DNA from: an uncultured Bacilli bacterium
GTDB taxonomy: Bacteria; Bacillota_I; Bacilli_A; RF39; UBA660
Assembly (NCBI GenBank): GCA_947629075.1
Contig: CANRCI010000001.1
Coordinates: 1-48,467, forward strand
Direction: 5' to 3'
Length of the DNA: 48,467 nt
Positions 3,154 through 48,173 of the stretch are shown in pieces (position 1 is the first letter of the stretch; every line of letters begins with the position of its first letter). Under the pieces are notes generated by a model, which did not search any database, was not told where the DNA came from, and saw nothing but the letters and a program-made list of their open reading frames with translations. The position numbers and the translations under genes are program-made.

Positions 3154-3723
3154 ATGATAAACAGAGAAGATGGTTTTACCCTTATTGAACTTATGGCAGT
3201 TGTAATTATTTTAGGTATTCTTATGTTGATTGCTGTTCCAAATACAACAGCTATTCTTGAAAAGAATAAAAAAGATGCAATGATCGAAGATGCTAAAAAA
3301 TTAATTGCTTTAGCTCAATATCAAGTTAAGAAGGATAAAAATATTGAATTGCCAGAAACAGCAGATGAAGCAATAGTAATTACTCTTCAATATATGAATA
3401 CTGATAATTTGAATAAAACTAATTATTCTACTTATTATATAAAAGATAGAACTTTCGTGGCAATTAAGAAAAATGGAGATAAATATATCTATTATGCCAA
3501 TTTAGTATCTTGTAATACTGATACTTGTAATGATGAAAAATATGGAATCAATCTCGCTACTGAAGAACAATTGAGATCTGATGCCAGATTTGATTTAGTT
3601 AAAAATACTGAACAATTACAAGATTTTTTGATCAAAGCTAATACGAGTGGTGGCTATGAAATAAGTACGGTTTTAACTAGTCCATCAGGAGTTTTAAAAG
3701 CTACTAGAATAGATGTTTATTAG
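3154..3723 (+). CDS. Type IV pilin / pseudopilin (class III signal peptide), divergent from the tandem copies
   Basis: MINREDG|FTLIELMAVVIILGIL: short basic leader, Gly-1, Phe+1, Glu+5, hydrophobic helix. Cys pair at SCNTDTC. Confidence 0.8.
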   Translation: MINREDGFTLIELMAVVIILGILMLIAVPNTTAILEKNKKDAMIEDAKKLIALAQYQVKKDKNIELPETADEAIVITLQYMNTDNLNKTNYSTYYIKDRTFVAIKKNGDKYIYYANLVSCNTDTCNDEKYGINLATEEQLRSDARFDLVKNTEQLQDFLIKANTSGGYEISTVLTSPSGVLKATRIDVY

Positions 3724-3745
3724 AGAGTTTAACTCTCTTTTTTTT
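3722..3745 (+). terminator. Rho-independent terminator
   Basis: AGAGAG / CTCTCT stem followed by a T7 tract. Confidence 0.65.
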
Positions 3746-3782
3746 CTTTAATGTAAATTTAAAAAAATTAAATTGATAAATA

Positions 3783-3811
3783 TTGACTGTGAATTTTGGG
3801 TATGCTAATAT
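3783..3811 (+). promoter_or_regulatory. Sigma-A-type promoter of the pilin array
   Basis: TTGACT (3783-3788), 17-nt spacer, TAATAT (3806-3811). It lies inside the ORF-track N-terminal extension of copy 1. Confidence 0.5.
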
Positions 3812-3842
3812 AAAATTATATGATAGGAAGGAAAGTGAAGGT

Positions 3843-4427
3843 ATGAGGAAGAATCAAAAAGGGTTTACATTGATCGAGTTGCTAGCTGTTATCATCATTT
3901 TAGGACTTTTAATGGCAATCGCAATTCCAAGTGTAACTCGTTATATTACACAATCAAGAAAGAAGACATTAGTTAATTCAATCGACAGTTTCATTTCCGC
4001 TGTAACAACAGCCGTAAATGAGCAAGAATTTGGAGCATTATCTAACCAAGAAAACATTTACTTTATACCGGTTTCAAATGATTCATCAAAGAGTTGCATC
4101 GAATTAGAAAAAGGTGGAACAGATCCGTTTGGAGTTTGGCAAGAAGCATATGTTGCAGTTCACTATGATGCAGAAAAGTTCAGTTATGATTACTATTTCA
4201 CATTCTATGATGATGCGGGATATGGTATGAGTTTAACTAAGAGTGATGATATAGCTACGAGTGGTAGTGATATCAAAAACCCAAGTCCAGTAAAGAGCGG
4301 TACAATCGTTAAGAATACAGTAGGGGCTAAAAAGCCTAAAGTAGGTGCAGCAGCTGCTGAAAACGCTACTCCTATGAAAATTCCTGTTGGTAATTGTAAA
4401 GTAGCTAATGCAACACCTGCTACTTAA
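3843..4427 (+). CDS. Type IV pilin, tandem paralog 1 (194 aa)
   Basis: MRKNQKG|FTLIELLAVIIILGLL class III signal peptide. Cys85 and Cys185 could form a D-region disulfide. ATG3843 follows a GAAGG SD. Confidence 0.85.
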   Translation: MRKNQKGFTLIELLAVIIILGLLMAIAIPSVTRYITQSRKKTLVNSIDSFISAVTTAVNEQEFGALSNQENIYFIPVSNDSSKSCIELEKGGTDPFGVWQEAYVAVHYDAEKFSYDYYFTFYDDAGYGMSLTKSDDIATSGSDIKNPSPVKSGTIVKNTVGAKKPKVGAAAAENATPMKIPVGNCKVANATPAT

Positions 4428-4469: not shown

Positions 4470-5060
4470 GTGAGAAAGAATCAAAAAGGATTTACTTTAA
4501 TCGAATTGCTTGCCGTTATCATTATCTTAGGACTTTTAATGGCAATCGCAATTCCAAGTGTAACAAGATACATTACACAATCAAGAAAGAAAACGTTGGT
4601 TAATTCAATCGATAGTTTCATTTCTGCTGTAACAACAGCTGTAAATGAACAAGAATTCGGTGCATTGTCTAACCAAGAAAATATTTACTTTATACCAGTT
4701 TCAAACGACTCAGCAAAAAGTTGTGTTGAACTAGAAAAAGGTGGAACTGATCCATTCGGAGCTTGGAAAGAGGCTTACGTAGCAGTTCACTATGATGCCG
4801 ATAAATTCAGTTACGATTATTATTTTACATTCTATGATGATGCTGGATATGGAATGCAATTGACTAAGAGTGACGATATAGCTACAAGTGGTAGTGATAT
4901 CAAAAATCCAAGTCCTGTTAAAAATGCAGATATCATAAAAAATACTGTAGGAGCTAAAAAATCCAGTGTAGCAAGTGCAGCAGATGCTAATCCGTTAGTA
5001 CTATCTACTACTGATTGCAAAGCTTCAACTGCTAAAGCTGGACCAGTAACAGTTAGTTAA
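4470..5060 (+). CDS. Type IV pilin, tandem paralog 2 (196 aa, GTG start)
   Basis: Same N-terminal 151 aa as the other copies with a few substitutions. GGAGG SD 5 nt upstream of GTG4470; the TTG4458 of the ORF track sits in the SD. Confidence 0.85.
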   Translation: MRKNQKGFTLIELLAVIIILGLLMAIAIPSVTRYITQSRKKTLVNSIDSFISAVTTAVNEQEFGALSNQENIYFIPVSNDSAKSCVELEKGGTDPFGAWKEAYVAVHYDADKFSYDYYFTFYDDAGYGMQLTKSDDIATSGSDIKNPSPVKNADIIKNTVGAKKSSVASAADANPLVLSTTDCKASTAKAGPVTVS

Positions 5061-5094: not shown

Positions 5095-5685
5095 ATGAGA
5101 AAGAACCAGAAAGGTTTTACTTTAATTGAGTTGCTAGCCGTTATTATCATTTTAGGACTTTTAATGGCGATTGCAATTCCTAGTGTAACGAGATACATTA
5201 CACAATCAAGAAAAAAGACATTGGTTAATTCAATCGATAGTTTCATTTCTGCAGTAACGACAGCAGTAAATGAACAAGAGTTCGGTGCATTATCTAATCA
5301 AGAGAAAATTTACTTTATACCGGTTTCAAATGATTCAACGAAGAGTTGTGTTGAATTAGAAAAAGGTGGAACAGATCCATTTGGAGTTTGGCAAGAAGCA
5401 TATGTAGCAGTTCACTATGATGCCGATAAATTCAGTTATGATTATTATTTCACATTCTTTGATGACGCTGGATATGGTATGAAATTGACTAAGAGTGATG
5501 ATATTGCTACAAGTGGTAGTGATATCAAAAACCCAAGTCCAGTTAAACATGCTGATATTATTTCAAACACTGTAAGTGCCAAAAAAACTAGTAAGGCAGA
5601 TGCAGCTAATGCTGATGCGGTAGTACTATCTGCTAAAGATTGTAAAGCTGCAACTGCTACAAGCGGGCCAGCAGCAACTAGCTAA
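5095..5685 (+). CDS. Type IV pilin, tandem paralog 3 (196 aa)
   Basis: As above; ATG5095 follows GGAGG. Confidence 0.85.
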   Translation: MRKNQKGFTLIELLAVIIILGLLMAIAIPSVTRYITQSRKKTLVNSIDSFISAVTTAVNEQEFGALSNQEKIYFIPVSNDSTKSCVELEKGGTDPFGVWQEAYVAVHYDADKFSYDYYFTFFDDAGYGMKLTKSDDIATSGSDIKNPSPVKHADIISNTVSAKKTSKADAANADAVVLSAKDCKAATATSGPAATS

Positions 5686-5719: not shown

Positions 5720-6289
5720 ATGAGAAAGAATCAAAAAGGATTTACATTAATTGAGTTGCTTGCTGTTATCATTATTTTAGGACTTTTAATGGCAATCGCA
5801 ATTCCAAGTGTAACAAGATACATTACACAATCAAGAAAGAAAACGTTAGTTAATTCAATTGATAGTTTCATTTCTGCAGTAACGACAGCAGTAAACGAAC
5901 AAGAGTTCGGTGCATTATCTAATCAAGCCAATATTTACTTTATACCAGTTTCAAATGACTCATCAAAAAGTTGTGTTGAACTAGAAAAAGGTGGAACTGA
6001 TCCATTCGGAGTTTGGCAAAAAGCATATGTAGCAGTTCACTATGATGCCGACAAATTCAGCTACGATTATTATTTCACATTCTATGACGATGCAGGATAT
6101 GGTATGCAATTGACTAAGAGCGATGATATAGCTACAAGTGGTAGTGATATCAAGAACCCAAGTCCAGTAAAAGCTGATAATATTGTTACAAATAGTGTAA
6201 ATGCTAAGGCAAGTAGCGCACCTGGTGCTGCCAATGCTACTGCTAAAGAGATTACTGTTGCAGGTAATTGTAAAGTAAGTGCATCTTAA
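5720..6289 (+). CDS. Type IV pilin, tandem paralog 4 (189 aa)
   Basis: As above; ATG5720 follows GGAGG. Confidence 0.85.
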   Translation: MRKNQKGFTLIELLAVIIILGLLMAIAIPSVTRYITQSRKKTLVNSIDSFISAVTTAVNEQEFGALSNQANIYFIPVSNDSSKSCVELEKGGTDPFGVWQKAYVAVHYDADKFSYDYYFTFYDDAGYGMQLTKSDDIATSGSDIKNPSPVKADNIVTNSVNAKASSAPGAANATAKEITVAGNCKVSAS

Positions 6290-7502: not shown

Positions 7503-7575
7503 TTTATCACCAATTAAATATATGTCGATATGAATAAATAATGACAAATAAGAAAGACTAATAGTGGTGATATTT

Positions 7576-9567
7576 ATGGTCAAGAGAGTTAATTTTATTA
7601 TGGTAGTTGTAATTGCAGCTTTTACTGTTATCATACTAAATCTTTTTTATTTAACGATGTTTAAAGGAAGTTATTATGAAGAAAAATTAGATGTGATGAC
7701 TGATAATGAAGTAGATGGATCATCGACTCCACGTGGTAGGATATATGACCGAAATATGAATTTATTGGTGGATAATAGGAGTATTCCCGTAATTTATTAT
7801 AAAAATGTCAATGATTTAAATACTTTTGAAGAGGCAAAATTAGCTTTAGAAATAACTGATCATATAGAAGTAGATGATAGACGTCTTACCGAAAGAAATA
7901 TCAAAGACTATATAATAGCTAGAGATGAAAATCAGTTAAACAATTTGATAACTAGTGATGAATGGTTACAATTAAAAAATCGGCGTATTACCGAAAATGA
8001 TGTTTATAACTTTAAATTAGAGAGAATTACTGATAAAGAAGTTGGGAAGTTGACCAGTAAAGAAAAAGAAGCTGCTTATATCTATTATCTTATGAAGAAA
8101 GGGTACTCCTATGAAGAAAAAGAGATCAAGAAAGATAATGTCGATGAAAAAGAGATTGCTTATATATCAGAAAACATCAGTAAACTAAATGGGTTCAATA
8201 TCAAATACGATTGGGAACGAGTTTATCTATATGGTGATACTTTTAAAACGATTTTAGGTAGTTTAGGAGATATTCCTAGTGAAGAGAAGGAAGAGTATTT
8301 AAAGAATGGTTATAGTTTAAACGATGTGGTTGGAACTAGTTTTATCGAGAAGGAATATGAGGATATTTTAAGGGGTACTAAAGAGAAATATGAAGTTACT
8401 AAAAATAATTTAGTTATGACTTCTAGTGGTAAAAGAGGAAAAGATATTGTTCTTACGATTGATATAAAACTTCAACAGGAGATAGATAAAATCTTGGAAG
8501 AGGAGTTGATAAAGGCTAAATACGAGAGCGCTACTGAATATTTAGATCATGCTTTTGTGGTAATTCAAGAACCGAATACAGGTGAGATTTTAGCGATGAG
8601 TTCTAAACAGGTGATTAAAAGTGGTGGTAAATATAAAGCTTATGACTACAGTAGTAATATTCCGACTGATGCGATGACGGTTGGTAGTGTTGTCAAAGGG
8701 GCGTCGATGCTTACAGCTTATAAAAATGGAGCGATTAAAATTGGTGAAGTTATGACGGATAGTTGTATTAAGATCTATTCTAAACCTCAGAAGTGTTCAT
8801 GGAGTAAGTTAGGAAGGATAAATGATTTAGATGCTTTAGCGTATTCCTCTAACATATATCAGTTTAAAGCAGCGATGAAGGTTGCTAATTTTAAATATAG
8901 TTACAATAAAAAATTCAATGTTACTAAAAATGATTTTGATATTTATCATCACACTTTTGAAGCTTTAGGTTTAGGAGTAAAAACGGGAATAGATCTACCT
9001 AGTGAAGCAGTGGGTAATAGAGGAACCAATTATTCCTCAGACCTATTTTTAAATTATGCCATTGGGCAATACGATACTTATACCGTCTTGCAACTTTCAC
9101 AATACATCAATACCATTGCTAGTAATGGTAAGAGGTATAAGCCCCATCTTTTAAAAAGTGTCTACGATAGTAGTGATGGTGAAGAACTGGGGAAAAAGTT
9201 ATACGATGTCGAACCAGTTGTTTTAAATGCTCTAGATATCGATTCTAAATATATAAAGAGGGTTCAAAAAGGTTTTAGAAGTGTTATGACTTATGGATTG
9301 GGTAAAAATTTTATGGGTGATGTCGATTCTCCTTGTGGTAAAACTGGTACTAGTGAATCTTTTTATGACAGTAATGGTGATGGAAAAGTTGATGTTCAAA
9401 CGGCTTCTAATGCTTTCGTCGGCTATGCCCCATATAAAAATCCCAAAATGTCAATTGCGGTCATGGTTCCCAATATCGTTAATAACGATACCAATGGAAG
9501 TGGTCGCAGCTATGTAAATAAAAGGATTACTAGAATGATTTCTGAGAAATTTTTTGAGTTATATTAA
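7576..9567 (+). CDS. Class B penicillin-binding protein (PBP2/SpoVD-type transpeptidase)
   Basis: N-terminal membrane anchor; SVVK (SxxK), SSN (SxN) and KTGT motifs in canonical order. Confidence 0.85.
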   Translation: MVKRVNFIMVVVIAAFTVIILNLFYLTMFKGSYYEEKLDVMTDNEVDGSSTPRGRIYDRNMNLLVDNRSIPVIYYKNVNDLNTFEEAKLALEITDHIEVDDRRLTERNIKDYIIARDENQLNNLITSDEWLQLKNRRITENDVYNFKLERITDKEVGKLTSKEKEAAYIYYLMKKGYSYEEKEIKKDNVDEKEIAYISENISKLNGFNIKYDWERVYLYGDTFKTILGSLGDIPSEEKEEYLKNGYSLNDVVGTSFIEKEYEDILRGTKEKYEVTKNNLVMTSSGKRGKDIVLTIDIKLQQEIDKILEEELIKAKYESATEYLDHAFVVIQEPNTGEILAMSSKQVIKSGGKYKAYDYSSNIPTDAMTVGSVVKGASMLTAYKNGAIKIGEVMTDSCIKIYSKPQKCSWSKLGRINDLDALAYSSNIYQFKAAMKVANFKYSYNKKFNVTKNDFDIYHHTFEALGLGVKTGIDLPSEAVGNRGTNYSSDLFLNYAIGQYDTYTVLQLSQYINTIASNGKRYKPHLLKSVYDSSDGEELGKKLYDVEPVVLNALDIDSKYIKRVQKGFRSVMTYGLGKNFMGDVDSPCGKTGTSESFYDSNGDGKVDVQTASNAFVGYAPYKNPKMSIAVMVPNIVNNDTNGSGRSYVNKRITRMISEKFFELY

Positions 9568-9650
9568 AATTTTTGGTGAATTAGATAAAAAGTCTTTGGC
9601 AAAAGGCTTTTTTTCTGATATAATACCAATAGAAAACGAGGAGGGATAGT

Positions 9651-9815
9651 ATGGCAAAGGTAGGAAATAGACAACTTAAGAGTTTAGTTTGCACTGTTTG
9701 TGGTGAAAAAAATTATCGTACTTCTAAGAATGTGAAGAATACAACTGAACGTCTTGAATTAAATAAATATTGTCCAAGATGTCAAAAACATACGCCTCAC
9801 AAAGAGGAAAAATAA
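9651..9815 (+). CDS. rpmG: 50S ribosomal protein L33 (not in the ORF track)
   Basis: 54-aa [57 protein letters not shown] with two CxxC pairs. GAGGAGGG SD upstream. Confidence 0.85.
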
Positions 9816-9855
9816 TTAGAGTTTAATTTTATATATAGAAAGGAGGGGAAAACCT

Positions 9856-10419
9856 ATGGCTAATATAAATATTAATGATATTAAAAATGGTATGACTATT
9901 AAAATAGATAATAACCTTTTTACTATTTTAGAGTTCCAACACGTTAAACCAGGTAAAGGACCAGCTTTTGTAAGAGTAAAGATGAAGAACGTTAGAACTG
10001 GAGCTACAATTGACAATACGTTCAATGCTGGTATTAAAGTTGAAACAGCTAGAATCGATAAACGTGAAATGCAATATTTATATTCGATGAATGATACTTA
10101 TTACTTTATGAATATGGAAGATTATGATCAGATTGAATTATCTAAAGATGTATTAGGTAAAGCTGTTAATTATTTAAAAGAAAACCTAAGCGTAATGGTC
10201 ATGTCTTACGAGAATGAAATAGTAGGAATTAACCTTCCCGATAAAGTTGATTTAAAAGTAGTTGAAACTGAACCTGCAGTTAAGGGAAATACAACTAGTA
10301 GTGCGATGAAAGATGCAACTCTTGAAACTGGTTACGTTGTAAAAGTACCTATTTTTATAGGTGAAGGTGAGACAATTTTAATTTCAACTAGTGATGGAAA
10401 ATATGTATCACGTGCTTAA
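9856..10419 (+). CDS. efp: Elongation factor P
   Basis: Full-length EF-P pattern (FQHVKPGKGPAFVRVKMKN with the modified-Lys loop, 187 aa). Confidence 0.95.
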   Translation: MANININDIKNGMTIKIDNNLFTILEFQHVKPGKGPAFVRVKMKNVRTGATIDNTFNAGIKVETARIDKREMQYLYSMNDTYYFMNMEDYDQIELSKDVLGKAVNYLKENLSVMVMSYENEIVGINLPDKVDLKVVETEPAVKGNTTSSAMKDATLETGYVVKVPIFIGEGETILISTSDGKYVSRA

Positions 10420-10442
10420 ACACTTTATAAGTGTTTTTTTTT
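10418..10442 (+). terminator. Rho-independent terminator after efp
   Basis: AAACACTT / AAGTGTTT stem, 3-nt loop, long T tract. It overlaps the ORF-track start at 10431. Confidence 0.7.
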
Positions 10443-10490
10443 GAATATTTATTCTCTTCAGTCATACAATTTAATGAAAGAGGAGATATG

Positions 10491-11015
10491 ATGAATAAAC
10501 AGAATTTGTGGTTTCTTACTTTGTTTAGTTTAATATTAGTTCTCAGTGTCTATTACGTAACGATGCCCAATGACTTACTTTTAACTACTAATAGTAATTA
10601 TAATGATAGCGAAACTAAAAAAAGTTCTTCTGATAAAGAAGAAGAAGTAAGTGTCGTTGTAGAAGATGCCGAATTAATATCTTCGATGAAACTTAGTAAA
10701 GAAGAGGAAAGATTAAAACAAAAAAGTGATTATCAAAAAGTTTTAACTAATACTGAGGCAACTACTGATGAAAAGAATGAGGCCTTAGAAAAGATAAAAT
10801 CTTTAGATGAAGTGAAGGCTGAAGAAGAGAGTTTAGAAACTAAAATCAAAGATAAATTTAAATTGGATTGTTATGTAGAAAAAGAAGAGACTAATATCAA
10901 TAGTGTCTGTGTCAGTGATAAACATGACAATACTTTAGCGAATAACATAATGCGTCTCATTCAGGGTGAATATGATGATCATAAATATATAACTGTGAAA
11001 TTTGAAAAGAGCTAA
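10491..11015 (+). CDS. SpoIIIAH-like protein
   Basis: N-terminus MNKQNLWFLTLFSLILVLSVYYV matches the characteristic SpoIIIAH anchor. Acidic linker, then a C-terminal domain ending ..YITVKFEKS. Start is ATG10488 or ATG10491. Confidence 0.55.
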   Translation: MNKQNLWFLTLFSLILVLSVYYVTMPNDLLLTTNSNYNDSETKKSSSDKEEEVSVVVEDAELISSMKLSKEEERLKQKSDYQKVLTNTEATTDEKNEALEKIKSLDEVKAEEESLETKIKDKFKLDCYVEKEETNINSVCVSDKHDNTLANNIMRLIQGEYDDHKYITVKFEKS

Positions 11016-11075
11016 ATCTCTATGATTTTAAGTTCTTTTTTTTAGGTGTATACCCTCAACAACTACCTATAAAAA

Positions 11076-11084
11076 CATAAACTA
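11076..11084 (+). promoter_or_regulatory. Candidate sigma-K-type -10 element upstream of the gerE-like gene
   Basis: CATAAACTA fits CATAnnnTA. Several AC dinucleotides lie 15-18 nt upstream. Confidence 0.3.
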
Positions 11085-11120
11085 TTATGAGTTTATATAA
11101 AAGGTAAAGGAGGTAATACT

Positions 11121-11324
11121 ATCAAAAGGATACTTACTAATCGCGAGAAAGAAGTGTTTGAATTATTAGTTTTAAACAAGACGACTAAAGAGATTGCAGA
11201 AATATTAAATATTAGTGAAAAAACAGTTAGAAATCACATATCTAATACAATGCAAAAACTGGGAGTTAAAGGACGAGCTGGAGCAGTTGTTGAACTTCTT
11301 AAGCTAAATGAAATTTCTTTATAA
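11121..11324 (+). CDS. gerE: GerE/LuxR-family HTH regulator (not in the ORF track; apparent ATC start)
   Basis: IKRILTNREKEVFELLVLNKTTKEIAEILNISEKTVRNHISNTMQKLGVKGRAGAVVELLKLNEISL closely parallels GerE. AAAGGAGG lies 7 nt upstream of ATC11121. In-frame TGA at 11088, with no ATG/GTG/TTG in between. Confidence 0.7.
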   Translation: MKRILTNREKEVFELLVLNKTTKEIAEILNISEKTVRNHISNTMQKLGVKGRAGAVVELLKLNEISL

Positions 11325-11326
11325 TC

Positions 11327-11353
11327 ATAAATAGATTACAACTTTCATATTAT
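11327..11353 (+). promoter_or_regulatory. Candidate sigma-E-type promoter upstream of gerM
   Basis: ATA, 16-nt spacer, CATATTAT; loosely fits ATA-N16-18-CATACAnT. Confidence 0.25.
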
Positions 11354-11370
11354 TTTTTAGGTGATGAAGT

Positions 11371-12306
11371 TTGAAGAAAAAGATATATCGCAAGATAGCT
11401 ATAACTAGTATGACAGTTGTCATTTTATTACTTTTATATTTAATGCCGGGCGTAGTAGATAATAAAAAAGATGTCTTTAATGTTCAGTACCAGGACGATT
11501 TTAAGGAGGAAGATGTCTATTTTTTGAATAGTACTAATCTCTTAGTTAAAACTAGTATTCCAGTCTTTAGTGATAGTGATTTAGCTAGTAGAATTAAGTC
11601 GGTTATTGAGAGTTTGATTTCAGCATCTAGTGAGATAATACCTAATGGACTAAATCGCGTCATTCCTAAAAATACTAAGTTGATTGGTATTGAAGTAGAT
11701 GAGTCGATGGTCAATCTAAATTTTTCTAAAGAATTACTCAATAGTGATGAGGACATGTATTTAAAAATGGTGGAATCGATTGCTTATAGTGTTTTAGATT
11801 TTAAAGAGATTAATGGTGTTAGTATTTATGTCGAAGGTACTAATATAAGTGGACAATTACCAATAGAGGTACCTAGTGTTATCACTAGAGATTTTGGAAT
11901 AAATAAGGAATACGATATAAAGAGGAAAGATGGAGTTGTCAAATACGTAGTTTATTATTTAGAAGAAATTGGTGAGAGTAAATACTATGTCCCAATTACT
12001 AAGTATGTCAATGACGATCGAGAAAAGATTAAGATAATTATTGAAGATCTGTCTAGTAGTTATCTTTATCAATCTAATTTGATAAGTGTTTTGGATAAAA
12101 ATGTCGAGCTTACTAGTTATGAAATTAATGAAAAAGAGATGATTTTAAACTTCAACAACAGTGTCTTTTTAGATGATGGAGAAATTATCGAAGAGGTTGT
12201 TTATCCGATCTGTTATTCGGTTTTTGATAACTATGATGTCGACCGCGTTGTAATCCAAGTAAATGGTAAAGAAATTTATAAAAAAGACAAAAAAGATATT
12301 GAATAA
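11371..12306 (+). CDS. gerM: GerM-domain (germination/sporulation) lipoprotein-like protein
   Basis: N-terminal membrane anchor plus two GerMN-like halves (LNRVIPKNTKLIGIEVDESMVNLNFSKEL.. and ..MILNFNNSVF..VVIQVNGKE). TTG start after AGGTGA. Confidence 0.6.
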   Translation: MKKKIYRKIAITSMTVVILLLLYLMPGVVDNKKDVFNVQYQDDFKEEDVYFLNSTNLLVKTSIPVFSDSDLASRIKSVIESLISASSEIIPNGLNRVIPKNTKLIGIEVDESMVNLNFSKELLNSDEDMYLKMVESIAYSVLDFKEINGVSIYVEGTNISGQLPIEVPSVITRDFGINKEYDIKRKDGVVKYVVYYLEEIGESKYYVPITKYVNDDREKIKIIIEDLSSSYLYQSNLISVLDKNVELTSYEINEKEMILNFNNSVFLDDGEIIEEVVYPICYSVFDNYDVDRVVIQVNGKEIYKKDKKDIE

Positions 12307-32437: not shown

Positions 32438-32497
32438 AAAAAGTCTATTTTTGTCGAATATTTGTTGTTAAAAACATATAATCTATTAGGTGATGAT

Positions 32498-33202
32498 ATG
32501 TTTTTTCAAATGATAGAATTTTTAAAAAGTCTATTTTTATTTACGGGGTCTTATTCCAATAACGTTTTTCCGGAGCCACTATCTAGCGAAGAAGAGGAAG
32601 AAGCTATTATGAAAATGCGTTTAGGGGATAAGGAAGCTCGTAATAAATTGATTGAACACAATTTGCGATTGGTTGCGCACATCGTCAAGAAGTTCGACGC
32701 TAAAAACAAGATGCGTGATCAAGATGATTTGATCAGTATCGGAACAATTGGCTTGATAAAAGGAATTGATTCCTATTCTAAAGGTCATGGCACTAAAATA
32801 ACAACTTACTGTGCTCGCTGTATCGAAAACGAAATTCTCATGTTCTTCCGCAGCAATAATAAAAACGAAAAAAATATATCCCTAAACGAATCGATCGGTT
32901 TTGATAAAGAAGGAAATGAGATTACAATCATGGACGTCTTAAAACTTCCTTCACCAGATTATATCGAAGATATTCAGACTAAAGATAATATCAAACTGTT
33001 AAAGGATTACATGAACGTTTTAACTCCTAGAGAAAAAGAAATTATTACGAGAAGATATGGCCTTAACAACCGCGAAGAAGAAACTCAGAAAAAGATTTCT
33101 AAAGAGCTTAAAATATCGCGTAGTTACGTCTCGAGAATTGAAAAACGAGCACTTACTAAGATTTTACGAGAATATATAAAAAACAATAATATTAACCATT
33201 AA
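32498..33202 (+). CDS. sigK: Sporulation sigma factor, pro-sigma-K type, uninterrupted
   Basis: Pro-sequence ..FLFTGSYSNNVFPEPLS, then LIEHNLRLVAHIVKKF, ISIGTIGLIKGIDSY, ARCIENEILM and ISRSYVSRIEKRAL; a very close parallel to SigK. Confidence 0.85.
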   Translation: MFFQMIEFLKSLFLFTGSYSNNVFPEPLSSEEEEEAIMKMRLGDKEARNKLIEHNLRLVAHIVKKFDAKNKMRDQDDLISIGTIGLIKGIDSYSKGHGTKITTYCARCIENEILMFFRSNNKNEKNISLNESIGFDKEGNEITIMDVLKLPSPDYIEDIQTKDNIKLLKDYMNVLTPREKEIITRRYGLNNREEETQKKISKELKISRSYVSRIEKRALTKILREYIKNNNINH

Positions 33203-34749: not shown

Positions 34750-34758
34750 GAGGATTTT

Positions 34759-36423
34759 ATGAAAAATAGAATAAAGGGATTATTGGTATTAATAGGACTT
34801 TCGTTGTTAGTTTTAAGTCCTGTTGATGTAAGTGCTGCCCAAAATACGAGTTTACTTCCAGCTAGTGGAAAAAATGTCGCATCTCCTGGTGATGAAATAA
34901 GTTATGTGATCACCCTTAGTAGTACTGACACAATAATCAGTTATAGAGCTAGTTTAGAGTATGACTCTTCAATATTACGACTAGTCAGTATAAGTAATGG
35001 TAGTGGATGGAGTGGTCAAAACAGCATATCTAGTCGTGATCTTTCATTTACTACAAATGGGGTTAGTGGTCAGAGCAATGTTGCTACTCTAAAGTTTAAG
35101 GTTGCAACTAACACTAGTAAAAAAAGCACCATCATTAGGTTAAACGGGGTTAATGTATGTGCCAAAGAAAGTAATACGCCGACTACTCCGGAGACGACTC
35201 CTACTACGCCAACTGATCCTGCAACTGCTGCATGTTCCAATATTACCACGTCACCAAAAACCTTAAACATTCAATCTAGCGATAATCAGTTATCGGCTTT
35301 AAAAGTAAATGGTAAGAGTGTATCTAACTTTTCCAAGAACAATTACGAATATGCGATGAGTGTTGAATCCAGTGTTGAGAAAGCTGTCATTAAAGCTACG
35401 ACTAATGATAGTTCTGCTAGTTTTGTCGATGGTTTTGGAAATAGAACCGTTGATCTTGAATACGGTGAAAACAAAATTGAAGTTCGTGTCAAATCAGAAC
35501 GAGGAGATCAACAAGTATATACGATTAGAATTAACCGTGAAGATGACCGAACTACTGAAAACCATTTGGAAGAAATAGTAATTGGTGATAAAAAAATAGA
35601 GAAGTTCGATAAAGATACTTTAAGTTACTATGTCAAAGTATATAAACAAGATAAAATTACAATTACAGCCTTGACGGTAGATGAAAAGGCTACTTATAAA
35701 GTTGATGGACCAACGACTTTGAAAATTGGTGAAAACGAATTTAAAATTACTGTAACTAGTGAAGCCGGAGAAGATTTAATCTATACCGTTACCGTTGATA
35801 ATATCGATAGTGAGATCAGTAAAAAGCTAAAATCTTTATCGATTAGTGGTTATGATATCGAATTTGATAAAAATAATCAGCGATATGAGATTTTGTATAA
35901 TAAAGATTTAATAAAGAAACTAAAGATTTATTTTACAACTGAAGCTAAAAGTGATGAAGTTACTGTTACAGTTACTCCTGATTTAGACGATAAAGAAGCT
36001 CTAGCTAAACTTAAAGCTGGAGATGAGATAGTTATTACTATTGAAGGTATTGATGGTGAAAAAGAAGAGTACGTAATAGTTTTAAAGAAAGATAAACGAA
36101 TTAATTTCTTCTTTGTTGTCGAATTAATAATCTTAATCGGTTTAATCGCTGCTATAACAGTAGTAGTTATCAAACGTAAGAAAGATAAAAATAACCCTAC
36201 AAAGAAAGAAAAGACAAAAAAAGAAAATGATAATGATGACGATGATTCAGTTGTAATTGCTAAACATGGTAAAACTGCAAGTAGTCGTGTTGAGCGTTAT
36301 GATGAAGAAAAACCTAAAAAGAAAAAGAGATTTTCCATCTATGAAGATGAATATGAAGAAGTAGAAATTGAAGTAGATGATGAAGATGAAGAAGAAATAG
36401 GTCAAACTAAAGAGTATAAATGA
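34759..36423 (+). CDS. Surface protein: signal peptide, cohesin-like domain, Thr/Pro linker, three cadherin-like beta-sandwich repeats, C-terminal TM and charged tail
   Basis: Signal peptide ..VDVSAAQN; TPTTPETTPTTPTDP linker; three repeats of type L..L.V.G..V..F....Y.Y...V...; TM FFFVVELIILIGLIAAITVVVI; K/D/E-rich tail. Confidence 0.65.
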   Translation: MKNRIKGLLVLIGLSLLVLSPVDVSAAQNTSLLPASGKNVASPGDEISYVITLSSTDTIISYRASLEYDSSILRLVSISNGSGWSGQNSISSRDLSFTTNGVSGQSNVATLKFKVATNTSKKSTIIRLNGVNVCAKESNTPTTPETTPTTPTDPATAACSNITTSPKTLNIQSSDNQLSALKVNGKSVSNFSKNNYEYAMSVESSVEKAVIKATTNDSSASFVDGFGNRTVDLEYGENKIEVRVKSERGDQQVYTIRINREDDRTTENHLEEIVIGDKKIEKFDKDTLSYYVKVYKQDKITITALTVDEKATYKVDGPTTLKIGENEFKITVTSEAGEDLIYTVTVDNIDSEISKKLKSLSISGYDIEFDKNNQRYEILYNKDLIKKLKIYFTTEAKSDEVTVTVTPDLDDKEALAKLKAGDEIVITIEGIDGEKEEYVIVLKKDKRINFFFVVELIILIGLIAAITVVVIKRKKDKNNPTKKEKTKKENDNDDDDSVVIAKHGKTASSRVERYDEEKPKKKKRFSIYEDEYEEVEIEVDDEDEEEIGQTKEYK

Positions 36424-41619: not shown

Positions 41620-41663
41620 GTTAAATTATTAGTAATTATTAACATTATTTGGGGGATGATATA

Positions 41664-42803
41664 ATGGATGATATTTTTAATTATTTAACCGATTTATTTG
41701 ATGATGTTCCAGTACCAGAAGTTAAGATTACTGTTGATCACGATTTAGATAAAGAGGAATTTGAAAATGTTAAAGAATTAATTTTATCAACCCCTGGTAT
41801 TACTGGTGTCGATTTTAAAGGAACAGTATCTGTTAATTTTATTGAACAAATTAAATGTCTTTTAGAGATTTCACCACTAGTAGATGATAAAAGTGTTGAA
41901 AAAATTGTTTTAGTAAATTTTAATCGTAAAGAATTAGAAAAACTGTTAAATTTAAATTATGTCAATCCTGAAACTTGGAGTATTGCTTATAAATATGAAG
42001 ATAATTCTTTTAAAGTAGCTCTTCTTCCCGAGGTGAGAAAGATCGAAGAATACATTTCTTTGATAAGTAGCAGTTTAAAGAAAAATTTAACTCCTTTAGA
42101 ACTGATAAAAGAGTTGTATGACTTTGTTAAACTGTTGGAACCTAAGGAAGAAGCATCTAATCTTCTTCAGGATATAATTAATACTCGTACTGCTAGTAGT
42201 TATGGATTTAGTTATTTACTACAGGAGTTGTTGGCGCGATTTAACATTCCTTCATATATTATTGATGTATCGCGTGATAAAAAATTATTTCATTCTCTAT
42301 TAGTTGAAATAAATGATGACAAATACCTAGCTTCAGGGATGTATCTTTTCGATCCTGAGAGTGATGCTGTACCAAAGCATTCTTATCGCAATGATCTAGC
42401 AAGGCATGTAAATTACAATTTTTTTGCTCTTAGCTGTGAAGAGGTTCAGCGACTAGTTTATGGTGATAAATTTGCAGGAATCATGGGAGCACTGATGATC
42501 AGTGATGAGGAGTTTGGCTTTAGAAAATATCGCAGGCGTAAAAACATTCGCGAAGTTACTAAGATAGAGAATACTTTCGATACTAATTATTTAGGCTTGA
42601 AAGAAAAAATAAACACAACTAAAAACATTCCTCAAGATATGAAAGTGAAATTGTTTACTAGTAATGTCAAAAAAGAACTGATCAAACTAAATAAAAATAT
42701 CGATGTAAAACATATTATTAAAGAGAATTATTTAGTTAAACGCCAAGAAATGTTTATAGAAGAGAAAAAAGAGATAGAACCGGTAGATATTTATGATATT
42801 TAA
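41664..42803 (+). CDS. Hypothetical protein, possible degenerate transglutaminase-like core
   Basis: ASSYGFSYLLQELLARFNIPSYIIDV .. HSLLVEI .. GMYLFDPESD parallels the Cys-His-Asp transglutaminase-like core, with Ser where the Cys would be. Confidence 0.35.
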   Translation: MDDIFNYLTDLFDDVPVPEVKITVDHDLDKEEFENVKELILSTPGITGVDFKGTVSVNFIEQIKCLLEISPLVDDKSVEKIVLVNFNRKELEKLLNLNYVNPETWSIAYKYEDNSFKVALLPEVRKIEEYISLISSSLKKNLTPLELIKELYDFVKLLEPKEEASNLLQDIINTRTASSYGFSYLLQELLARFNIPSYIIDVSRDKKLFHSLLVEINDDKYLASGMYLFDPESDAVPKHSYRNDLARHVNYNFFALSCEEVQRLVYGDKFAGIMGALMISDEEFGFRKYRRRKNIREVTKIENTFDTNYLGLKEKINTTKNIPQDMKVKLFTSNVKKELIKLNKNIDVKHIIKENYLVKRQEMFIEEKKEIEPVDIYDI

Positions 42804-42869: not shown

Positions 42870-43226
42870 ATGCCTAAAACTAATAGTAAAGGACAAGCTT
42901 TAGTAGAATTTTTACTTATCTTGCCAATTTTTCTGTTCATTCTTTTGGCAGTCGTAGATTTTGGCAGAATTTTTGTTACTAGAAGTAATTTGGAATCCCT
43001 TTCTAGTGAAGCAGTAAAGCTCTATGAAAAAGATAGTAATTATGATACCGTCAACAAAGAATTAAAAGAAATATCATCAGATGAGTTTGTTTTGTCTATT
43101 GACAAAAACGGTAATAAAGTTAAGATTGTCGTTCAACGTGATGTAAGCATTATGACACCTGGTTTACAACAAGTTTTAGGTAAAGTTTACAAAGCTAGTA
43201 GTGAAAGAGTGATTTTAGATGAATAA
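42870..43226 (+). CDS. TadE-like pseudopilin
   Basis: MPKTNSKG|QALVEFLLILPIFLFILLAVVDFGRIF: TadE N-terminal motif with Gly-1 and Glu+5. Confidence 0.75.
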   Translation: MPKTNSKGQALVEFLLILPIFLFILLAVVDFGRIFVTRSNLESLSSEAVKLYEKDSNYDTVNKELKEISSDEFVLSIDKNGNKVKIVVQRDVSIMTPGLQQVLGKVYKASSERVILDE

Positions 43227-44208
43227 TAATCGTGGACAGGCATTAGTATTATTTGTTCTTTTTCTACCAGTATTGATGCTCATCTTAGCGTGGTCAATAG
43301 ATACAGTTTACTTAAATTACGAGAAACAAAAATTAGATGGAATAACTACTTCAATTATGGAGAACTTAAAAAATTACCCAGGAGCCGATGAAAAAGTAAT
43401 CACTGAACTTTTTGAAGATAACGATCGCGATATTGAAGTTTTAAAAAGTAATGTTCAAAGCGATAAAATAAGTATTTCCTTAAAAAAAGAAATTCCCAGT
43501 TTATTTGGAAGAATTATAGGTTACAATACTTATTCATTAAAACTAGAAAAAGATTACGATTATGAAGCATTAGACAGCATTTACGCTCCAGTTAACAATG
43601 GCCTTTACTTACATTTTACAGGTATAGATGCGTTAAATGATGACAATGAATTAGTTGATCGAACTGGTATAAACAAAATCGATTATTTCAATTTAAGTTG
43701 GGATAAGAAAGACCATTATTATAGTTTTAATGGTAAGGATTCACGCATCACCAATAGTATCGATTTTGAAAACGCAACCAACTATTTTACTATTCAAATG
43801 TTGTTTAGAACCAAAGATGTTAACAATTACAATAAAGTCTTAGTTTTAGATTTTTACGATATAAAAGACCAAGTTTTAAAATTGACTTTTAGGATTAATA
43901 ATGGTGTTTTAGAAGTATATGACGATTCAGAAAAAATTGGTGAGACAAAAGTAAATCCAATTTCAAAATACTATGTTGAGATAACCAAGGATGACAATGG
44001 TCTAAACATATATTTAGATAATGAATTGTTAGTTAGAAAAGATATTGGTTTCACTTTAAAGTCAATCATTACTAATATCGGAATGGAGAAAGATGATAAT
44101 TCGTCATTTGATGGTGGTATATACACATATCGCATTTATAATAGACTTTTAACCGATGAAGAGAGAAGTAAAAACTATAGTAATGCTTTAAAAGAGTATA
44201 CATCTTAA
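43219..44208 (+). CDS. TadG/TadE-like N-terminal anchor fused to a LamG (concanavalin A-like lectin) domain
   Basis: MNNNRG|QALVLFVLFLPVLMLILAWSIDTVY. The C-terminus has the LamG hallmarks ..YYVEITKDDNGLNIYLDNELL.. and FDGGIYTYRIYNRLLTDEE. Confidence 0.7.
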   Translation: MNNNRGQALVLFVLFLPVLMLILAWSIDTVYLNYEKQKLDGITTSIMENLKNYPGADEKVITELFEDNDRDIEVLKSNVQSDKISISLKKEIPSLFGRIIGYNTYSLKLEKDYDYEALDSIYAPVNNGLYLHFTGIDALNDDNELVDRTGINKIDYFNLSWDKKDHYYSFNGKDSRITNSIDFENATNYFTIQMLFRTKDVNNYNKVLVLDFYDIKDQVLKLTFRINNGVLEVYDDSEKIGETKVNPISKYYVEITKDDNGLNIYLDNELLVRKDIGFTLKSIITNIGMEKDDNSSFDGGIYTYRIYNRLLTDEERSKNYSNALKEYTS

Positions 44209-44245: not shown

Positions 44246-45025
44246 ATGGAGATTAAAAAAGGGAAAATATTTACAATTACATCGATGAAAGGTGGCGTAG
44301 GAAAGACTACTTTCGTCATGAGTTTAGCTAAAATTTGTGAAGAAGAAAAATTGAAAGTACTAATTATGGATTTAGATTTTTATACTGGAAATGTTGCTTT
44401 TTCATTGAATGCTAAAACTAAAGGAAGTATCTATAACCTATGTGATGATATGGCCAATAATCGTATTAAATATGGTGTAACTGATGAATATATCCACAAG
44501 ATAAATGATTATATCGATATCGTATCCTCACCTAAAGATCCTAGAGATGTAACTAAGATAGATGATAAATACATCGATGCCATTCTTAACAATTTAGTAT
44601 ATAAATACGACGTAATTTTAATAGATACTAACCATGTACTAAATGAACATAAAATGGTCGCGTTTGATTTAAGTGATAAGATAATTGAAATACTTACCAA
44701 TGATGCTTTTGATTTACAAGGAAATAAAACTTTTATGGCAATATGTAAAAATATGAAAGTAGATAATGTTATCTTAGTCCTTAATAATTCGATTGATGAA
44801 CGAAAGAGATATTTTTCGATGTATGATATAAAAAATATTTTAGGTAGAAATGTCAATTATATTATTCCTACTAGTTTTTATTTAAAAAATTATCAACAGA
44901 TGGTTATGGATGGCGATATTTTGAATTTTAAGAACAAATTATCATCAGCTGGTAAAAAAGATTATTCTAAATTCAGAGAGAATATGAAAAAAATATTATT
45001 AGAGGGTGGTAAAGATGGCAAATAA
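44246..45025 (+). CDS. TadZ/CpaE-like ParA/MinD-family ATPase (no receiver-like domain)
   Basis: Deviant Walker A TSMKGGVGKTT and LIDT Walker B region. Positioned directly upstream of cpaF. Confidence 0.7.
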   Translation: MEIKKGKIFTITSMKGGVGKTTFVMSLAKICEEEKLKVLIMDLDFYTGNVAFSLNAKTKGSIYNLCDDMANNRIKYGVTDEYIHKINDYIDIVSSPKDPRDVTKIDDKYIDAILNNLVYKYDVILIDTNHVLNEHKMVAFDLSDKIIEILTNDAFDLQGNKTFMAICKNMKVDNVILVLNNSIDERKRYFSMYDIKNILGRNVNYIIPTSFYLKNYQQMVMDGDILNFKNKLSSAGKKDYSKFRENMKKILLEGGKDGK

Positions 45026-46445
45026 ATGGTTAGAAGAATTTAATTTCGTATCCCATGATAAAGAAGTAAGTTCTGAAAGTGTTCAAAGCGATTACGAAGT
45101 ATTTAAAGATAAAGAATTACTAGATAAATTTAGAACAGTTATCATTCAAGATTTAATAGATAATAGAATACCTGATGGTAAACTTCTTACACAATACATT
45201 AATGAAGAAATTGATAGAATTACTGATGGTTATGATTTAACTAATTTAGAGAGAAGTCATATCTTTAATTTGATCGAGAATGAAGTAAATGGTTATGGAC
45301 CTTTAACAGAACTTTTAGATGATAAAAATATTACGGAAATCATGGTCAATTCTGCTGATGAAATATATATTGAGGTCGATGGTCAATTGATTCGTGATGA
45401 AAGTGTATCGTTTATCAATGAAGAACATATCATTAGGACTATTCAAAGAATTATTCAACCGCTAGGTAGAACGATTGATTCAACTAATCCGATGGTCGAC
45501 TCTCGTCTGCCAGATGGTTCTAGAATTAATGCTGTCATTCCGCCACTTTCGGTTAAGGGACCAGTTGTTACTATTCGTAAATTTAAGGATAGTATGGATA
45601 ATATTGAGAACTTAATTGGTAATGGTAGTATGACTCCATATATGGCTAGATTTTTAAATGCTTGTGTCAATGCCAAGTTGAACATTTTAGTTTGTGGTGG
45701 TACTGGTAGTGGTAAGACGACCCTTCTAAATGTTTTATCCAACTTTATCGGTTCAGGAGAACGTATTATAACGATCGAGGATGCGGTAGAGTTAAGACTT
45801 CATCAGGAACACGTCATTCAACTGGAGACAAGAAATGTTAACTACGATAAAGAAGGAGAAGTTACAATTCGTGATTTAGTTCGTAACTCACTTCGTATGC
45901 GTCCGGATAGAATTATCGTCGGTGAAGTTCGTGGTAGTGAAGCTTTCGATATGTTACAAGCTATGAATACAGGACATGATGGAAGCTTGACAACGCTTCA
46001 TGCCAATGGACCAGCTGATGCTCTAGATAGACTTGAAACGATGATTTTGATGAGTGGAATAGAAATTCCCCTAAAGGCAATCCGTGGTTATATTGTCAAT
46101 GCTTTAGATATCGTTGTCAATGTCGAACGTCTAAGTGATGGTCGAAGAAAGGTAACTTCTATTTCTGAGATTACGGGATTTGATGGTGATGAAATAGGAT
46201 TGAAAGAAATATTTGCCTTTAATCAGAACGGTGTAACAGATAACAGAGAGGTTATCGGTGAATTTGTTCTATATCCATATATTCCAAAAGTATATAGTAA
46301 AATTAAAAGTCGCGGTGTCGATGATGTCGACGATATTTTTGAAGAATTACAAAAACAAATCGATGCTGAAAACAAAAAGAAAACTAAAGATGGAAAAAAG
46401 AAAGAGACTAAAAAAACGACCAAAAAGAAAAGTGTAAAAAAATAA
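45015..46445 (+). CDS. CpaF/TadA-family secretion ATPase with a polylysine C-terminal tail
   Basis: [12 protein letters not shown] Walker [18 protein letters not shown] and [13 protein letters not shown] motifs. The tail is [25 protein letters not shown]. Confidence 0.9.
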
Positions 46446-46461
46446 AAAAAGGAGGTAGACC

Positions 46462-47469
46462 ATGAATAGTGTTGGTGTGTATACAATTCAGATTCTTACA
46501 ATATTAACCCTTCTAGTAATTGTTTTTCGATTATTGAGATTGAATTCATCCCTTAGAATGGTTAGACGCTTTACTCCTTATACAGTAGAAGAATTAGAAG
46601 ATCGCGATGAGACGTTATTCGATTATCTATATCGAAGATATCAGGTGTATCGCAAAAAGATTTCTAAACAGTTCAAAAAGTCTAAATTGTTATTAGATTA
46701 CAGTAAAAAATATGAGAAGTATTGCGATAATAGTAAGATCATAAGAGATGAAGCAATGGACTACATTTCTGATAAATTTGTCGTCGGTTTTGTGGCGATG
46801 ATTGTCATTATGTTCTCTGACATATTTCAATATCAACCAATAACTTTTTTGCAGTTGTTGACATTTTATCTAATCGGATTTTTTATACCAGATTTGGTTT
46901 TAATATCTAAGAATAAAATTCGTGAGAAGTTAATTGAAAGAGATATGTTACACGCGATCATAATCATGAATAATGCTTTTAAATCAGGAATGAGCATTAT
47001 GCAAGGTATATATATGGTTTACAATGAGTTAGATGGGCCGATTAGTGATGAATTCAAAAAGATGTATATCGACATTACTTTTGGACTTAATATGGATACC
47101 GTATTTAAAAGATTTGCTGATCGCGTTAAGACAAAAGAAGCAAAATACATCACAACTTCACTTACGGTACTAAATAAGACTGGTGGTAATATAGTTCAAG
47201 TATTCTCATCAGTTGAAAGAAATTCGTTTACCCGTAAGAAACTACGTGAAGAATTAGGAGCTATTTCAGCATCTAGTGATGCCATTTTCAAGATGTTAGC
47301 AATTATCCCAATATTCTTAATCGGCATAATTTTGATGCTCAATCCGACATATTTTTCACCACTTTTCACAACTAGTGAAGGCTTACTAATCCTTGGCCTA
47401 TTAATCCTTATTTATGTCCTATACATATTTATAGTTAGAAAAGTTATGAAAGTAGAGGTTGATATTTAA
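46462..47469 (+). CDS. TadB-like type II secretion F-domain membrane protein
   Basis: N-terminal TM, T2SSF-like cytoplasmic domain (AFKSGMSIMQGI..), C-terminal TMs. Confidence 0.75.
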   Translation: MNSVGVYTIQILTILTLLVIVFRLLRLNSSLRMVRRFTPYTVEELEDRDETLFDYLYRRYQVYRKKISKQFKKSKLLLDYSKKYEKYCDNSKIIRDEAMDYISDKFVVGFVAMIVIMFSDIFQYQPITFLQLLTFYLIGFFIPDLVLISKNKIREKLIERDMLHAIIIMNNAFKSGMSIMQGIYMVYNELDGPISDEFKKMYIDITFGLNMDTVFKRFADRVKTKEAKYITTSLTVLNKTGGNIVQVFSSVERNSFTRKKLREELGAISASSDAIFKMLAIIPIFLIGIILMLNPTYFSPLFTTSEGLLILGLLILIYVLYIFIVRKVMKVEVDI

Positions 47470-48173
47470 TGAATAGAAATAATTCTCGACTTGCATATCG
47501 TATATATAGTAGGAAAGAAATAGAAAAATATCAGCGAAAAATCGATTTATTTGGCTATGGAAAGAGTTATGACGCAACTATTTTTCTAAATATTAGACTT
47601 CTTACTTCCGCTTTCTTGTTTTTTATGATATTATATATATTCGAGTTGGGATACGTCTTAGCACCTATTCTTACCGTTTTATATTATTATTTCTTTCCTT
47701 ATTTTGTAATTGATCGAAAATTACAGAAGAGAAGTGATAAATTAGATAATGATGCGATGTATTTCTTTGAAGTTATGACTCTATCAGTTGAAACTGGTAG
47801 AAATTTAAAAACAGCTTTAGAGCTTACAGCTAATACGGTCGATAGTGAATTATCTGATGAATTCAAACAAACGTTAAAAGAAGTAAGATATGGTAAAAGC
47901 TTAAATGAAGCTTTGGATGATTTGAAGAGAAGAATCCCATCTGATACAATTAATAATATTATTCTTAATATTTCACAGTCTAATATTTTTGGTAATAGCA
48001 TTATCGAGACGATGTATAATCAAATAGACTATATAAGAGATAGACAAATAATGAGAGCAAAAGCTAGTATTAGCAAGGTACCATTAAAAGTCTCAGTAAT
48101 TTCTGTACTTTTTTATATACCTTTAATAATGTTATTGATTTTATCGCCAGTAATAATAGAATATTTTAGTTAG
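47469..48173 (+). CDS. TadC-like type II secretion F-domain membrane protein
   Basis: T2SSF-like domain ([23 protein letters not shown]..) flanked by TMs. Start overlaps the tadB stop. Confidence 0.75.

Follow-up and report, generated by a model that had tools for sequence, protein, structure and literature searches.

The window analysed here is a stretch of 48,467 nucleotides from contig CANRCI010000001.1 (assembly GCA_947629075.1) of an uncultured Bacilli bacterium, and covers 48 kb of its genome. It has a G+C content of ~31%, carries nearly all of its genes on the + strand, and contains two gene sets related to type IV filaments (T4F): a tandem cluster of pilin genes near its 5′ end and a Tad-like assembly cassette at its 3′ end, which a preliminary description of the same DNA had proposed to be the fibre subunits and the motor of one machine. 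The majority of the open reading frames (ORFs) in the window were scanned against Pfam, and the remainder were read as translations only. The pilin locus has the order SpoVS, 160-aa (amino acid) ORF, pil1, tandem pil2-5 and nfo, with the following features:

2597-3079, + strand: conserved ORF of 160 aa, function unknown, at the head of the pilin locus (no Pfam match)
3154-3723, + strand: pil1, divergent class III pilin of 189 aa with the site G-FTLIEL (PF07963, 32.1 bits; TIGR02532)
3843-4427, + strand: pil2, 194 aa, opening a run of four tandem pilin paralogs (PF07963, 38.7 bits)
4470-5060, + strand: pil3, tandem pilin paralog of 196 aa with a GTG start (PF07963; TIGR02532; AlphaFold2 model)
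5095-5685, + strand: pil4, tandem pilin paralog of 196 aa (class III site scan; alignment)
5720-6289, + strand: pil5, tandem pilin paralog of 189 aa (PF07963, 38.6 bits; alignment)

All five pilin precursors (189-196 aa) possess a short leader, Gly at -1, Phe at +1 and Glu at +5, followed by a hydrophobic segment of ~20 residues. The leader of pil1 is MINREDG, with FTLIEL after the cleavage site, and pil2-5 share the leader MRKNQKG (VRKNQKG in pil3, as translated from GTG) followed by FTLIELLAVIIILGLLMAIAIP. The four pilins scanned against the N_methyl model PF07963 score 32-39 bits against a cut-off of 21.2 (E 7e-8 to 6e-10), and the two scanned against TIGR02532, pil1 and pil3, score 30-33 bits against 16.3. 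The class III motifs quoted in the preliminary description, KG-FTLIEL for the pilins and KG-QALVEF for the TadE-like protein of the cassette, are exact, and a six-frame regular-expression scan of the window returned only six plausible class III sites, namely those of the five pilins and of TadE.

The pilins pil2-5 share 95-97% pairwise identity in their first 150 aa as against 37-61% in the last ~45 aa; pil4, for example, matches its three neighbours pil2, pil3 and pil5 at 95-96% identity across these 150 aa but has a divergent C-terminal tail. This tail is hypervariable and Ser/Ala/Thr-rich, and contains the second of two conserved cysteines. Each gene of pil2-5 has a GGAGG ribosome-binding site. 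A perfect sigma-70-like promoter (TTGACA-17-TATAAT with an extended -10 TG; 2541-2569) lies 5′ of the 160-aa ORF, a terminator-like hairpin (3722-3738) directly follows pil1, and a promoter-like site (3783-3811) precedes pil2.

The AlphaFold2 model of pil3, built from an alignment of 46 sequences (mean predicted local distance difference test score 83.4), comprises a 50-residue α1 helix (residues 10-59) and a sheet of four to five strands (71-77, 99-109, 114-123 and 128-133 among its elements), so that the predicted fold is the pilin lollipop. Sequence likeness to solved type IVa pilins is confined to the helix (PilE1, PDB 8pfb, is among the matches), and a Foldseek search of the model against the PDB gave no match with E <1, the head having no significant fold neighbour there. 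By every sequence and fold feature considered, these proteins are type IV pilins of the GFxxxE/T4a-like class. A prepilin peptidase would remove the short leader after Gly-1, the hydrophobic α1 helix with Glu+5 would pack into the filament core, and the small β-sheet head with its hypervariable, Cys-stapled C-terminal tail would face outward; the four near-identical copies pil2-5 probably give co-polymerised or alternative surface variants. Only 13 homologs of pil1 were found, all except the window copy on contigs <20 kb, and because of this small number pil1 appears to evolve fast. A relic of comG was also considered for the pilin cluster and rejected, as the pilin sizes are wrong and the models of ComGC, ComGD, ComGE and ComGF match the N-terminal helix only (~30 bits against cut-offs of 75).

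The second gene set begins about 37 kb downstream of the pilins and runs, together with its immediate neighbours, as follows:

41649-42803, + strand: X380, conserved protein of 384 aa, function unknown, between ddl and the cassette (no Pfam match)
42870-43226, + strand: TadE-like pseudopilin, 118 aa, whose leader ends in NSKG, with QALVEF after the cleavage site (PF07811, 49.9 bits against 22.9)
43219-44208, + strand: TadG/TadF-like protein, 329 aa (PF16964 TadF and PF13385 Laminin_G_3, both below cut-off)
44246-45025, + strand: CpaE/TadZ-like ParA-family ATPase, 259 aa (PF13614, PF01656, PF10609)
45006-46445, + strand: CpaF/TadA-type assembly ATPase, 479 aa (PF00437, E 1.9e-64; CpaF in the PDB, 2e-103)
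46462-47469, + strand: TadB-like platform protein with one T2SSF domain (PF00482, 38 bits)
47469-48173, + strand: TadC-like platform protein with one T2SSF domain (PF00482, 60.9 bits)
48184-48467, + strand: yebC (partial; from its translation), the constant neighbour downstream of the cassette, which marks the 3′ end of the locus

The locus contains an ATPase of the CpaF/TadA clade, a platform split into TadB and TadC, a ParA-like ATPase and a TadE pseudopilin, all of which are features of Tad systems; neither a Flp major pilin nor a dedicated prepilin peptidase of the TadV/CpaA type was found in it. Among solved structures, the ATPase matches Caulobacter CpaF (2e-103) far better than an archaeal GspE-type ATPase (PDB 2oap; 3e-40) or PilT (1e-12), and its best NCBIfam match is TIGR03819, below cut-off. 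The NCBI call places its start at 45015, which gives 476 aa. It ends in a Lys-rich C-terminal tail (~46368-46442) not seen in the relatives read, whose CpaF proteins have 443-472 aa. The CpaE-like protein, at 259 aa, is too short for an N-terminal receiver-like domain. In the TadG/F-like protein the N-terminus MNNNRG is followed by QALVLF, with no Glu at +5, and a C-terminal extension of ~210 aa resembles LamG weakly (PF13385, 23.8 bits against a cut-off of 27.6); it is possibly a lectin-like module, peculiar to this lineage, that a Tad minor pilin has come to carry.

The cassette is widely conserved, with at least 120 protein clusters 75-80% identical to the CpaF of the window. Eight genomic contexts were read, those of the window and of seven relatives (L007/8, L009/10, L091, L100/102, L109/110, L111-114 and L115-118), and in all seven further contexts the order is tadE, tadG-like, cpaE, cpaF, tadB and tadC, followed by yebC in every relative locus that extends past tadC. 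The TadE-like protein is present in all relative cassettes with a recovered 5′ end, and the TadG-like orthologs have only 105-140 aa and lack the C-terminal extension. Identity to the window proteins is 65-80% for CpaF (75-80%, with 65% in L091), 46-55% for the CpaE-like protein, 54-61% for TadB and 62-72% for TadC. On the same contigs MurF is 57-60% and Ddl 63-72% identical, so the conservation of CpaF exceeds that of MurF throughout and that of Ddl everywhere except in L091, which argues that the cassette is a core, vertically inherited unit of the clade. The closest CpaF among the matches listed in a scan of a genome collection is 59% identical (L011); that locus is without tadE, and a protein of more than 2278 aa with repeat modules and a DUF285-like C-terminus (L011, 3-6839) lies ~2.4 kb upstream of its cpaE-cpaF-tadB-tadC.

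Upstream of the cassette the neighbours vary between relatives and include X380, dnaE or a hydrolase. A metagenome search with the lineage-specific X380 yielded 12 loci, which tie X380 to ddl and not consistently to the cassette. Across the relatives, X380 homologs are followed by the Tad cassette (L007, L009, L091, L100, L102 and L109) or by topA (L092, L094, L096 and L101, and L097 after one intervening ORF). The slot directly upstream of tadE is hypervariable, being empty in the window and in L091, holding a 1778-aa repeat protein in L109, and containing, between X380 and tadE, four tandem proteins of ~165-190 aa in L007, L100 and L102. The latter have no Pfam or NCBIfam match, and their N-termini are like MKDSKNLVIGMLCAVICVMAVAYA followed by AFSTTLKVNGTASI, with an AxA-AF site. 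They were considered as Tad pilins and set aside, as they lack Gly-1 and Glu+5, their AxA-AF signal resembles the SipW/TasA type, and an S26 signal peptidase and a sortase are encoded nearby. A 463-aa protein that shares this N-terminus is encoded immediately downstream of yebC, close to the sortase, a VWA protein and the S26 signal peptidase. Together these genes (L007, 5969-8407 and 14018-20036; L100, 11149-13614; L102, 11089-13587) may represent a second fibre system on the flanks of the Tad cassette.

The pilin locus is also conserved in relatives. The loci L103-105 are syntenic with it, containing SpoVS, a small ORF, three N_methyl genes, nfo, PBP, L33 and efp, where the small ORF is an ortholog of the 160-aa ORF at the equivalent position between SpoVS and the pilins, and where the L103 cluster is headed by a pilin whose size and N-terminal segment are similar to those of pil1. 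In L001 the pil1 copy is preceded by a 142-aa ORF, which resembles the 160-aa ORF in size. Beyond this locus, members of the pilin family are orphaned among housekeeping genes in at least six different slots, which include those after a SigK-like gene (L005, L106), before radC (L005), among unrelated genes (L004) and after X380 (L098). Many of them carry long C-terminal extensions, some with the modules PF03382 (DUF285), PF13306 (LRR) and PF00404 (dockerin). In L009/L010 a 592-aa pilin (N_methyl and DUF285), ~52% identical to pil2 in the first ~150 residues, is encoded immediately 5′ of tadE and in the same orientation. Between this gene and tadE, L009 has a terminator-like hairpin with a following T-run (8398-8416) and a promoter-like site with TG (8457-8485), and on these sequence signals the pilin gene is a neighbour of the cassette and not a member of its operon. 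Ala replaces Gly at -1 in the TadE proteins of L111 (8503-8889; KRA-QALIEF) and L115 (8542-8913; QKA-QALIEF), as well as in the first pilin of the L103 cluster (8603-9169; NRNA-FTLVEL).

The preliminary description had noted that, within the window, the pilins are without a PilB/PilC-type motor and the Tad-like motor is without a major pilin. Both statements hold, as no PilB, PilC, PilM, PilN or PilO was found among the window ORFs, and the six-frame scan gave no Flp-sized class III ORF. No comGA or comGB was found in the window either. A Flp-like ORF was likewise not found in the seven relative cassette contexts. An A24 peptidase (G.GD.K motif) was found neither in the window nor in the lineage loci nor in a lineage sample of ~540 kb (redundant), made up of the window and the relatives' DNA, and neither a further T4F ATPase or platform nor any peptidase came to light in this sample. 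The 10 kb on either side of the pilin homologs of L004, L005, L103 and L106 likewise showed no genes for Pil or Com components or for a peptidase. The contigs listed for matches to CpaF and to the pilins, compared by the length of the longest contig, had at least three in common (48,467, 128,167 and 48,743 nucleotides). As a baseline, 60 unrelated Tad loci from a CpaF-based scan of genome contigs were subjected to the same crude ORF tests as the lineage; a Flp-like ORF was present in 38 of the 60, an A24-like ORF in 25 and a TadE-like ORF in 34, and in no case did a GFTLIE-type pilin lie less than 10 kb from cpaF.

The region upstream of efp was also inspected. Here PBP precedes efp, in L103 together with L33, and no comG lies there (window, 7564-10419; L103, 11938-14801). 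Bulleidia and other Erysipelotrichales are reported to keep comG upstream of efp (PMC12786226), a comparison that assumes a kinship of this lineage to Erysipelotrichales.

We read the window, at a probability of about 0.5, as containing two separate, individually incomplete pieces of a T4F repertoire. From the gene content, the class III motifs, the predicted pilin fold, the conservation of both loci and the absences in the window and the relatives' flanks, we infer the following for pilin processing, polymerisation and the assignment of motor to pilin. Both sets rely on one or more prepilin peptidases whose genes lie beyond the window. The GFTLIE pilins would be cleaved by a PilD/ComC-type peptidase and polymerised by a motor of the PilB/PilC or ComGA/GB type, with the genes for both in other parts of the genome. 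The cassette is most likely a vertically inherited six-gene Tad-type unit of the Flp-less Gram-positive kind, and would build a filament or a pseudopilus, either out of the TadE/TadG-like proteins that it encodes or out of other subunits provided in trans. The scattered orphan pilin genes fit a trans-acting machine, and pilins need not be encoded beside the genes of their biosynthetic machinery (Imam 2011, PMC3244431). The same study describes Flp-less Gram-positive tad operons with TadE-like proteins only, which were proposed as the structural subunits. The trees of ATPase, platform and major pilin all split Tad and archaeal systems from type IVa pili (T4aP), Com and the type II secretion system (T2SS), so that GFxxxE pilins normally go with the other branch of motors, and peptidases are common to several systems (Denise 2019, PMC6668835). 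One Erysipelotrichales genome has both tad and comG (PMC12786226). T4F genes certainly lie elsewhere in the genome, because TadE requires cleavage by a prepilin peptidase, and none was found in the window or in any of the relatives' loci sampled; for this reason an argument from complementary absences is unsound for 48 kb.

Several observations weigh against two separate systems and point towards the single machine of the preliminary description. None of the eight cassette contexts contains a major pilin gene, so that the subunit has to come from another locus, and apart from the GFTLIE pilins no abundant class III proteins were seen in the lineage. No Pil or Com motor gene was detected in the ~540 kb sampled, nor was comG at the efp-proximal position kept in Erysipelotrichales. 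The occurrence of Ala at -1 in both protein families would fit a single shared peptidase. A pilin of the same family stands beside tadE in one relative (L009/L010), as against none of the 60 unrelated Tad loci, and another lies right after X380 (L098). On these grounds it is plausible, though less likely than separate systems, that the GFTLIE pilins, including their modular relatives, make up the fibre that the Flp-less Tad-type motor assembles. The steps would be that one trans-encoded peptidase cleaves both sets, that the TadE/TadG-like proteins prime assembly, and that CpaF with TadB/TadC extrudes a filament of ~190-aa pilins, a sequence of events that we regard as equally tentative. At its widest, the CpaF/TadB/TadC motor would be the sole T4F machine of a spore-forming gut Bacilli family, polymerising GFxxxE pilins and their modular DUF285, LRR and dockerin relatives with TadE/TadG-like primers, and this, too, is rather less probable than separate systems. 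In favour of the link, the complementary absence extends to relatives (neither Flp nor a peptidase in seven further cassette contexts, and no motor in at least six contexts of pilin genes), the conservation of CpaF marks the cassette as a core function of the clade, and the sampled lineage DNA holds no rival ATPase, platform or peptidase. As a partial precedent, mid-sized (143-237 aa), non-Flp pilin-like proteins encoded in a cluster with a Tad-like machine have been suggested in the gut Clostridia TANB77 (PMC11680825). However, the adjacency in L009 is broken by the terminator-like and promoter-like signals, unrelated genes for surface proteins occupy the slot upstream of tadE in other relatives, and one adjacency among ~20 flanking gene slots (p roughly 0.1) is weak evidence. 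We know of no experiment in which a Tad motor polymerised pilins of the GFxxxE class, and the Flp peptidase FppA and PilD of Pseudomonas aeruginosa were reportedly found by de Bentzmann in 2006 to be substrate-specific. The strictly conserved Phe+1 suggests a methylating peptidase of the PilD/ComC type rather than TadV. The peptidase of TadE is itself encoded elsewhere, so an absence from 48 kb proves nothing. The co-divergence of pilin class and motor class (Denise 2019, PMC6668835), the earlier description of Flp-less tad operons with TadE-like proteins as the proposed subunits (PMC3244431) and the coexistence of tad and comG in an Erysipelotrichales genome (PMC12786226) also speak for separate systems.

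Two further explanations deny a fibre of GFTLIE subunits, or a present function, altogether. The GFTLIE proteins might be pilin-anchored surface proteins or pseudopilins, where the pilin module only anchors or presents variable C-terminal parts at the cell surface or forms a short secretion piston. The large C-terminal modules of the relatives' family members (PF03382 DUF285, PF13306 and PF00404 dockerin) are consistent with this, as are the presence of GspG among the best NCBIfam matches of the pilins, though far below its cut-off, and the fact that no GFxxxE minor-pilin set was seen besides pil1. It is nevertheless improbable, as pil2-5 are short (189-196 aa), tandemly amplified, equipped with their own ribosome-binding sites and near-identical save for the exposed tail, which is the pattern of major pilins. 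In Streptococcus sanguinis, the major pilins are encoded by the tandem genes pilE1/pilE2, and genuine pili contain modular pilins as minor subunits, which counts against the anchor explanation as well. Finally, each locus is without components normally found in cis, and one or both might therefore be decaying remnants without present function. This is very improbable, since all ORFs are intact, the cassette is conserved (65-80% for CpaF, in at least 120 protein clusters), the pilin locus is syntenic in relatives, and the pilin paralogs keep the invariant motif residues and both cysteines. Two separate, incomplete gene sets thus remain the preferred description.

By gene content, not by phylogeny, the closest description of the cassette is the 'no Flp_1' group of Gram-positive tad operons (Imam 2011, PMC3244431). 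These share TadA/CpaF, TadB, TadC and a TadZ/CpaE-like ATPase, contain TadE-like proteins as the only class III proteins of the operon, and have neither flp nor a secretin. The cassette described here differs in that tadV, too, is missing from the locus, and in that it forms a fixed six-gene unit joined to yebC and vertically conserved across a gut Bacilli family. With the canonical Tad/type IVc systems (Aggregatibacter tad, Caulobacter cpa) it shares CpaF, the split TadB/TadC, the ParA-like CpaE/TadZ and the G-xxxxEF site of TadE. Unlike them it contains no Flp, TadV/CpaA or RcpA/RcpC/TadD (the absence of the latter trio is expected in a monoderm), its CpaE-like protein is too short for the receiver-like N-domain, and the LamG-like module on its TadG-like protein occurs in this genome only. 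The T4aP of S. sanguinis resemble the pilin locus in having tandem, near-identical major-pilin genes in a monoderm, the GFxxxE signal, and modular pilins with adhesin or lectin modules, but there pilB, C, D, M, N, O and T and the genes for minor pilins are grouped with those for the major pilins. In the present lineage the pilin genes have no machine genes in their vicinity, and no significant fold match to the head domain was found in the PDB. The cluster of TANB77 gut Clostridia (PMC11680825), which encodes CpaB, TadZ, CpaE, TadA, TadB/C and seven pilin-like proteins of 143-621 aa, is similar in combining a Tad-type machine with mid-sized, non-Flp candidate pilins in uncultured gut Firmicutes, several of the candidate genes having their own promoters. 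Its candidates lie in the same cluster and show no recognised pilin motif, whereas the pilins of the window are canonical N_methyl proteins whose genes lie 37 kb away from those of the motor. A locus without a peptidase of its own, presumably served from another locus, is also known from MSH pili and further T4F that borrow a peptidase (Denise 2019, PMC6668835). MSH loci, however, keep their own major pilin, while the motor locus here lacks both.

On the current view each pilin class evolves together with its motor class, Flp pairing with Tad, and the GFxxxE class with the motors of T4aP, Com and T2SS; a link between the two loci, if true, would break this pairing. It would also provide a minimal six-gene monoderm machine for studying how a platform selects its pilins, in an abundant uncultured rumen/gut group, and the numerous modular pilins of this group might then be understood as a means of displaying adhesins. 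If not true, the window holds ordinary orphan pilin genes and another Flp-less Gram-positive tad operon, both described since 2011.

The remaining genes of the window include several sporulation markers, namely SpoVS, a SpoIIIAH-like protein, GerM, M23 and M50 peptidases resembling SpoIVFA/FB, and a SigK-like sigma factor, and an Rfam scan of the window returned tRNA only. Directly after efp lie the SpoIIIAH-like gene (10431-11015) and GerM (within 9856-12306), with no spoIIIAA-AG between, and in L103 likewise only SpoIIIAH is found. In Bacillus subtilis the whole spoIIIA operon follows efp, where SpoIIIAA is secretion-ATPase-like and SpoIIIAB is GspF-like. The M23 and M50 peptidases (28429-29752) are encoded ~3 kb upstream of the sigma factor (32462-33202), whose N-terminal extension, containing YSNNVFPEPLSSEEE, resembles the pro-sequence of SigK. 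In L005 and L106, one or two large N_methyl pilin genes stand immediately after the SigK-like sigma gene. Near the other end of the window, positions 1218-2150 encode a 310-aa protein that has no Pfam match and comprises an N-terminal membrane segment and a long low-complexity region rich in Pro, Ala, Glu and Val. At 33319-36423, an Ig-like polysaccharide deacetylase gene and a cohesin/cadherin-like surface-protein gene are adjacent and syntenic in relatives, and a cohesin-dockerin pairing with the dockerin-bearing members of the pilin family is conceivable.

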